A DNA stretch of 64,000 nt from an uncultured Chitinophaga sp. (GTDB lineage Bacteria > Bacteroidota > Bacteroidia > Chitinophagales > Chitinophagaceae), in assembly GCA_964399755.1 (NCBI GenBank), contig CAYNSL010000003.1:840-64839 (forward strand). The letters are read 5' to 3'. Made by a program: the position numbers and the translations under genes. Shown piece after piece: positions 55,189-55,902 of the stretch; the stretch's first letter is position 1; every line of letters begins with the position of its first letter. The notes under the pieces are model-generated. The model had not been told where the DNA came from. It worked only from the letters and a program-made list of their open reading frames with translations, and did no database searches.

Positions 55189-55902
55189 ATGAAATCGAGT
55201 AAAGTACGGGTATTAACCATAGTAATGATTGCCTTTGTTGTATTGTGCTGCGCCAAAAAAGGTATGGCACAAAAGGAAAATGAAATAAAGGATTATGCAG
55301 TCCTCACGGGAAAACAGTTGACTGAAAAGTTTAACGCTTTTAAAAGGGATCCCGGTTTTACGGCCCTGCTGGCCGAAGTTACCCGGAAGGGCTTTGGGAA
55401 AATTACCGATCAGAAAGATACCCGCTATGCCTGGGGATTCACGGGAAAGTGGGAAGCCGATAAATCGGTTTCCGAGGTCATTATCTGCGGGTTTGATTTT
55501 GTAAGCAAAAAGGGGGAAGCCTGCACCATGTTGTGGGGAAAAGTTGGCGACAAAATCTACAAAACCTACATGGTTTTCCCGGCCGATAAAAAGGGACTGG
55601 AAGCGTTGGGTTCCGCCCAGGAATGGTACGCCGATTCCGGAAATAAAGTGCAATTGGCACATAGTTTAAAATCCTGTCTCCGGAACTGGATTGAAGATCA
55701 TTGCAGCAGTTGGTGCGAGCGCTCCAATAAGGACTGCCTCTCGGCTGCAACCACCAAAAGAACCGTTGAAATTGAATTGGGCGGTATGAAGATCACCACC
55801 ACCACAACCAGCTTTTCCCTGTCGGCATTTGTGTCCTGTGTAGCAGCCAGTTGCTCAAGTTGTATTTCTCTGGGGCTTGTTTCCTGTGCTTTGTCGAATT
55901 AA
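55189..55902 (+). CDS. Secreted protein with a C-terminal 8-Cys domain (bacteriocin-precursor-like)
   Basis: Signal peptide ending GMA-Q; the last 75 aa contain C-x8-C-x3-C-x6-C...C-x4-C-x2-C-x7-C with a hydrophobic Ser/Thr-rich end. Confidence 0.7.
   Translation: MKSSKVRVLTIVMIAFVVLCCAKKGMAQKENEIKDYAVLTGKQLTEKFNAFKRDPGFTALLAEVTRKGFGKITDQKDTRYAWGFTGKWEADKSVSEVIICGFDFVSKKGEACTMLWGKVGDKIYKTYMVFPADKKGLEALGSAQEWYADSGNKVQLAHSLKSCLRNWIEDHCSSWCERSNKDCLSAATTKRTVEIELGGMKITTTTTSFSLSAFVSCVAASCSSCISLGLVSCALSN

Follow-up and report, generated by a model that had tools for sequence, protein, structure and literature searches.

An exported Chitinophaga protein with a predicted disulfide-laddered helical hairpin, carried on an accessory genomic island

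The window described here is a 64,000-nucleotide stretch of DNA from an uncultured Chitinophaga sp. (GenBank assembly GCA_964399755.1, contig CAYNSL010000003.1, positions 840 to 64,839 of the forward strand). At 55189-55902 on its plus strand lies a gene for a small exported protein, called the target below. The analyses support that it is exported by Sec and built of two domains, that its helical hairpin carries nested disulfides in a ladder, that it behaves as cargo of a genomic island, and that its gene lies together with those of secreted lipases, a probable pore former, lectins and peptidases. These features are tentatively explained by a self-chaperoned, membrane-active antagonistic protein.

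The target belongs to a family that is rare, unnamed, and without a Pfam or NCBIfam model. An exhaustive phmmer search of 1.84 billion protein representatives (threshold E<=1e-3) found 53 representatives of it, nearly all of them 200-280 aa long. Members whose source is named are annotated as hypothetical, and one comes from an Ignavibacteria metagenome-assembled genome (MAG). The target itself gave no match to Pfam, NCBIfam or PADLOC, nor to any PDB sequence.

The protein and its predicted hairpin

An earlier note on this DNA had proposed a secreted protein made of a signal peptide, a globular region and a cysteine-rich tail. The open reading frame (ORF) and its signal peptide are present as described. 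The frame is intact and occurs as a single copy in its own genome. Its parts are as follows.

55189..55902 (+): whole ORF, 237 aa plus stop, one copy in the genome
55189..55272 (+): Sec signal peptide of the signal peptidase I (SPI) type, residues 1-28, with cleavage predicted between GMA and Q (sequence reading; AlphaFold2 helix over residues 4-22)
55273..55653 (+): N-terminal alpha+beta domain, residues 29-155
55657..55665 (+): AHS junction motif, residues 157-159, with A157 and S159 conserved in at least 90% of sequences
55666..55749 (+): N-arm helix of the hairpin, residues 160-187, with cysteines a, c, d and e at C163, C172, C176 and C183 (AlphaFold2; cysteine column assignment)
55759..55806 (+): polar, Thr-rich beta-hairpin tip, residues 191-206 (AlphaFold2 strands 191-197 and 200-206)
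55819..55893 (+): C-arm helix of the hairpin, residues 211-235, with cysteines f, g, h and j at C217, C222, C225 and C233 (AlphaFold2; cysteine column assignment)

The proposed layout therefore stands, while the globular region is about 127 aa long rather than the roughly 135 aa first given. The signal sequence ends in ...VVLCCAKKGMA before the Q, and thus holds two cysteines, but no lipobox. In the closest homologue (P0002, 60% identical to the target) the signal is free of cysteine and ends in VKA before the Q. Because of this, the two signal cysteines of the target are not read as a lipobox, nor the target as a lipoprotein. The N-domain shares the motifs WGF.G, F.FDF, YK.Y..FP and EWY with the family, and a C100-C112 disulfide is likely within it.

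Of the 12 cysteines, eight belong to the tail, the 82 aa from residue 156 on, which argues that their pattern is not due to chance. The last 75 aa begin at the first tail cysteine (C163, nucleotide 55675). Two four-cysteine clusters, C163/172/176/183 and C217/222/225/233, flank a TTTTT segment, just as the earlier reading had it, and the Ser-, Ala- and Cys-rich C-terminal end has the same letters that were given there.

The conservation expected of these cysteines was found. In an alignment of 47 sequences, C172, C176, C183, C217, C222 and C225 are at least 90% conserved. The alignment consists of a conserved N-domain, then the junction Q.AHS[WF], then nearly invariant cysteine columns. The junction ranks among the most conserved positions of the family, and could be a hinge or a processing site.

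The tail can be described by ten canonical cysteine columns, lettered a-e along the first arm and f-j along the second. Among 62 distinct relatives, the following patterns occur, with a dash for a missing column.

abcde on the first arm, fghij on the second: 21 sequences
a-cde on the first arm, fgh-j on the second (the target's own pattern): 19 sequences
ab-de on the first arm, fg-ij on the second: 8 sequences
-bcde on the first arm, fghi- on the second: 6 sequences

Columns b and i are present or absent together in 61/62 sequences, c and h in 61/62, and a and j in 55/62. Alternative pairings of the variable columns show far lower agreement. Since the sequences are mutually related, these counts stand for at least three events and not for 62 independent observations. 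Clades differ in which mirror-image pair they have lost, with three such pairs affected in all, and this supports a nested ladder in which a pairs with j, b with i, c with h, d with g, and e with f. Such co-variation supports a ladder of four rungs in the target, which would be C163-C233, C172-C225, C176-C222 and C183-C217, and of five rungs in many relatives.

Structure prediction had been suggested earlier as a way to see the disulfide pairing. AlphaFold2, run with the family alignment, gave the helix-tip-helix fold, although the pairing itself is taken from cysteine co-variation and not from the model coordinates. At full length the prediction is a single confident body, with a predicted local distance difference test (pLDDT) of 91.5 and a predicted template modelling score (pTM) of 0.83. 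The tail alone, as an 83-residue fragment from protein residue 155, is modelled at pLDDT 91 with a helix at 2-33, a beta-hairpin at 34-55 and a helix at 57-82. Comparison of the fold against the PDB gave no specific match. The models and the mirror-pair co-variation support placing the tail in the structural class of disulfide-stapled alpha-hairpins, in which antiparallel helices are joined by nested disulfides.

The accessory island and its relatives

The target gene is one of a block of co-oriented genes spanning ~11 kb. In order, they encode a 7TMR-DISM/HisKA_3 kinase, a LuxR-type response regulator, a GDSL-like hydrolase, a protein resembling the cholesterol-dependent cytolysins (CDC-like), the target, a RicinB lectin, an M23 peptidase and an astacin. 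Its two-component system probably regulates the island, which holds secreted proteins that attack membranes and cell walls.

48854..59634 (+): accessory island holding the target (Pfam, ESM Atlas, empty site in three congeners, guanine-plus-cytosine content)
53292..55064 (+): CDC-like protein of 590 aa, upstream of the target (ESM Atlas 0.92)

The GDSL-like hydrolase (688 aa) has a GDSxG motif and a weak Pfam match, and its relative in a related locus (L018) matches Lipase_GDSL_2 at 1.8e-6. In the ESM Atlas, the 590-aa protein has a score of 0.92, with 196 shared features and 17 neighbour clusters that carry PF01289 (thiol cytolysin); PF01289 and other Pfam hidden Markov models (HMMs) do not match it even at E<=5. 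It is probably a CDC-like pore former. A hydrophobic antisense ORF of 114 aa with a GTG start (54926-55270, minus strand) bridges the gap between this gene and the target, overlapping the ends of both. It contains a terminator-like hairpin (55071-55087), and is probably not a gene.

The flanks of the island are housekeeping genes, with DnaB and RsmE on one side and TerC, DHODH and a thiolase on the other. In three congeners the island is absent and RsmE directly abuts TerC, which identifies the whole block as an accessory island. Its guanine-plus-cytosine content is 0.47-0.48, compared to about 0.51. Just outside it, between DnaB and RsmE, lies a 425-aa class-2 lipase (Lipase_2 plus Lipase_C; 46790-48067, plus strand). 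Because DnaB and RsmE are adjacent in the three congeners and in L004, this gene is a second lipase insertion.

The same site between DnaB/RsmE and TerC/DHODH is occupied by related islands in other genera (L004, L006, L016 and L017), and islands of equal make-up are found in L015 and L018. All six consist of a kinase, a regulator, a protein called cluster 3, a lipase (either class 3, often with RicinB, or GDSL-like) and a homologue of the target. Lipase and homologue do not keep a fixed order, and none of the six contains a relative of the 590-aa CDC-like protein. When the window is included, a lipase-type gene stands beside the homologue or two genes from it in 7/7 Chitinophagaceae loci (Lipase_3 in L004, L006, L015, L016 and L017; GDSL-like in L018 and the window).

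Cluster 3 is a signal-bearing protein of 406-441 aa without a Pfam match. Its sequence alternates in the manner of beta-strands, is interrupted by a coiled-coil insert and closes with a conserved ...ISCMMR. It may form a barrel in the outer membrane and serve as the marker of a swappable effector island. Examples are L004:6751-8016, L015:8610-9851 and L018:6629-7954, and it also occurs in loci L024-L048. It was found in 27/400 Chitinophagaceae genomes, always in such islands and beside a HisKA_3 kinase and a LuxR regulator; the island in the window is without it. Only 4/27 of these genomes carry the target family, and the remaining islands carry lipases, stand-alone LecA-like lectins or other cargo. 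Thus, the target family is one interchangeable cargo gene, and is not obligately tied to the lipase, to cluster 3 or to a CDC-like protein.

Other cargo can be recognised as well. The M23 and astacin peptidases of the window have C-terminal modules with 68% identity between the two. Both modules end in ...FANDI..GY.NN.G..TVT.KR, and so do stand-alone ORFs of 170-173 aa (L026:939-1460, L031:2729-3241, L032:975-1487 and L034:2740-3261). The lectin-like module thus also travels in these islands as a gene of its own. Outside the island, a protein at 40572-42320 (plus strand) carries a Por_Secre_tail sorting domain, and the genome therefore uses a type IX secretion system (T9SS). No island protein carries that domain, the target included.

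The family profile matched 6/400 other Chitinophagaceae genomes, with two of the six matches weak. One of these two (G699) lies inside an 873-aa LuxR-type regulator and was treated as spurious. A weak member with E 3e-12 is encoded at L019:9321-9998 on the minus strand (G626). Its tail is much richer in Trp and in cysteine, with CC and CxC runs, and may represent another version of the hairpin domain. The profile matched 0/4 congeners, 0/342 genomes from the other families of the order, and 0/379 from the other families of the phylum. Further homologues were found in a Chitinophagaceae MAG (one) and on soil metagenome contigs (four).

The gene contexts inspected are limited to Chitinophagaceae genomes and closely related contigs from soil metagenomes. 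Locus searches starting from P0061 or P0063 found no related locus, and tblastn of one relative against plasmids gave no match. Three paralogue types about 50% identical to one another are represented by P0061/P0064/P0066 (10.4-kb contig) and P0027/P0065 (8.0-kb contig), where the sharing of a contig is inferred only from source contigs of equal size. Their hairpin loops have 25, 29 and 17 residues, and each type has orthologues of 55-70% identity elsewhere. This hints at multi-copy arrays or a system of several components.

Possible function and its alternatives

In the tentative explanation given at the start, the N-domain would be a built-in chaperone or pro-domain, and possibly serve self-protection as well. 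During export it would hold the stapled hairpin in solution, and the tail would fold in an oxidising compartment as a stable, greasy module. The hairpin, whether or not cleaved near the AHS junction, would then insert into or disturb an envelope membrane of competing or prey cells. Across loci, the family adjoins GDSL-like or class-3 lipases, the CDC-like protein, lectins and peptidases, and this company counts in favour of such a role. The weak links to bacterial halocin-C8-like precursors given below point the same way, as do the three paralogue types that seem to share contigs. Most relatives are free of charge from cysteine d onwards: over these 40-70 aa up to the C-terminus, the median number of charged residues is 0, and hydropathy averages about 1.7. 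Conserved disulfides lie inside this most hydrophobic stretch, and speak for a domain that folds outside the cytoplasm more than for a plain transmembrane anchor.

Several observations weigh against this explanation. From cysteine d on, the target has 9 charged residues and a hydropathy of 0.46, so that its tail is much less hydrophobic than is normal for the family. The hairpin loop is uncharged in 41/53 relatives, compared to five charged residues in that of the target. P0002 resembles the target here, with 8-9 charged residues and a hydropathy of about 0.5 across the pair, and both have a polar, Thr-rich beta-hairpin in place of the greasy loop. The two are 76% identical in the tail and 58% in the N-domain, which is not usual for a variable toxin tip. 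The polar tip weakens the proposed role; since the tip is a polar beta-hairpin, the window copy may bind a surface target rather than bury the tip in lipid. Export is a further difficulty. The producer is diderm, and with no recognisable T9SS sorting domain or other outer-membrane route the target may never leave the periplasm. A word-indexed search, which is only a weak test, found no tails encoded as separate short proteins.

The halocin C8 profiles likewise do not favour it. A search with them had been proposed earlier, on the analogy of a precursor that combines an N-terminal region with a cysteine-rich toxin. TIGR04449 (halocin_C8_dom, cut-off 24 bits) has no match in the target, in the 47 relatives at E<=10, in the window's genome or in five homologue-bearing genomes. 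PF22862 (Hac8_like_N, the HalI domain) has none in the target or in the 47 relatives at E<=10. NF040679 (halocin_of_epi, the Staphylococcus type, cut-off 200 bits) does not match the target or its genomic homologues, and gives weak co-linear matches to 2/47 relatives at 14-19 bits, far below its cut-off. As an analogy of architecture the proposal holds, with an export signal, an N-domain and a cysteine-rich tail; as a claim of family membership it is not supported.

The target might nonetheless be a true distant homologue of halocin C8 precursors, with a HalI-like immunity domain cleaved from a bacteriocin and the whole related by common descent. Descent is a separate question from mechanism. 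The parts have the same order and sizes, and many relatives have 10 cysteines, which is the number in halocin C8. The weak NF040679 matches are co-linear, with residues 85-221 of P0018 aligned to positions 118-234 of the 243 in the model (E 8.3e-4) and a second match to P0012 (E 0.02), but they could reflect a shared composition of Cys, Gly and Ala. ESM Atlas neighbours include an archaeal cluster (0.83) and the PF27906 Gpos_C8-like cluster (0.81), though scores below 0.9 are only leads. Together with the silence of TIGR04449 and PF22862, even at E<=10, across the 47 relatives and the six genomes, this makes common descent unlikely. A published census of bacterial C8 homologues also lists none in Bacteroidota (bioRxiv 10.64898/2026.07.27.741052).

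Alternatively, the target may be a self-protection or helper factor for the membrane-attacking enzymes encoded with it, held at the membrane in the periplasm by its greasy hairpin. It could shield the producer from a lipase or pore former in transit, as do the Tli immunity proteins of the type VI secretion system (T6SS) or BcdI. It could also help a lipase to fold or to reach lipid, as Lif foldase, colipase and saposin do. The nearby lipase-type gene in every Chitinophagaceae locus fits this role, and the periplasm is the default location for a protein with a Sec signal and no outer-membrane export tag. There is also a precedent, since the BfCDCL operon of Bacteroides fragilis encodes the immunity protein BcdI (PMC11169675). 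Yet the neighbouring lipases belong to two unrelated folds, and adjacency by itself says little when lipases are common island cargo. Although lipases are common in them, 23/27 marker-positive genomes are without the target family, which argues against an obligate partner. On balance a helper role seems rather unlikely. Its narrowest form, an immunity or chaperone partner for the CDC-like protein (CDCL) as suggested earlier, was rejected on synteny. The CDC-like gene occurs only in the window, with 0/6 related loci having one beside the homologue, and the target has no lipobox and is not a lipoprotein like BcdI.

A role as a periplasmic protein with an ordinary two-helix membrane anchor at its C-terminus, for example a co-sensor for the island kinase, is quite improbable. 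Membrane anchors do not normally have 8-10 invariant, co-varying cysteines, some of them paired in the most hydrophobic part. The tip in the window, with its five charged residues, is predicted to be a soluble beta-hairpin, and the same kinase-regulator pairs stand in most islands that lack the target gene. Finally, a precursor of a ribosomally synthesised and post-translationally modified peptide (RiPP), such as a lanthipeptide, would account for a tail rich in Cys, Ser and Thr and for nothing else. Pfam and NCBIfam annotation of the neighbours at 40.5-63.4 kb of the window shows neither a modifying enzyme nor a leader-type peptidase nor an ABC exporter; the earlier note had likewise seen no RiPP-modifying enzyme nearby. 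The paired cysteines fit disulfides, and the precursor is a folded protein of 237 aa. This reading was rejected for want of modifying enzymes nearby, and is almost certainly wrong.

If the antagonistic explanation is followed, its broadest form is a class of ribosomal protein toxins, the first in a diderm (Bacteroidota) to join a carrier or immunity domain covalently to a membrane-active alpha-hairpin with a disulfide ladder of 4-5 rungs. Such a class would come from swappable, regulator-controlled islands of soil Chitinophagaceae, and would be a very remote branch of halocin C8 or convergent with it. This is possible but doubtful. Should the tail prove membrane-active, the one-gene, toxin-plus-carrier weapon of the halocin C8 style would extend to Gram-negative soil Bacteroidota, and a very stable, disulfide-laddered helical scaffold could be studied as an antimicrobial.

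Regardless of function, an unannotated protein family has been defined, with a clear and testable disulfide topology. A recurring hot-spot island in Chitinophagaceae has been defined as well. A two-component system is part of it, and so, in most cases but not in the window copy, is a putative outer-membrane barrel; the rest is an exchangeable set of secreted lipases, lectins, pore formers and peptidases. The island is a natural system for studying how Chitinophagaceae attack neighbours or prey.

Comparison with known systems

The halocin precursor ProC8 of Natrinema consists of an export signal, HalI and the 76-aa HalC8 (bioRxiv 10.64898/2026.07.27.741052). The target is built like such a precursor, and may resemble it in logic; the likeness rests on architecture. 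Both have an export signal, an N-domain of 130-200 aa and a cysteine-rich, hydrophobic tail of about 65-95 aa. In the target these are a signal of 28 aa, an N-domain of 127 aa and a tail of 82 aa with 8 cysteines, and relatives have 8-10, many of them 10. Like ProC8, the target is a single-gene unit that moves independently. It differs in its Sec rather than Tat signal, in its diderm Bacteroidota host, and in the 8 cysteines and polar tip of the window copy. Bacterial proteins like the halocin C8 precursor (NF040679, PF27906) are similar to the target in length, Sec signal and two-part layout, but the target and its genomic homologues have no NF040679 match.

BcdI and the target are both small exported proteins whose genes lie beside that of a CDC-like pore former. 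BcdI is a signal peptidase II (SpII) lipoprotein encoded upstream of a CDCL pair. The signal of the target is of the SPI type instead, and a single CDC-like gene precedes the target gene. The loci of its relatives, unlike that of BcdI, have no CDCL.

Disulfide-stapled alpha-hairpins include plant alpha-hairpinins, the twin-CX3C small Tim proteins and the CHCH proteins, which have two disulfides and short arms. The target family shares with them two antiparallel helices and nested disulfides that arise from CX3C-type motifs, and in relatives a-x3-b pairs with i-x3-j. It differs in its ladder of 4-5 rungs, its helices of about 26-32 residues, its beta-hairpin or greasy tip, and its fused carrier domain.
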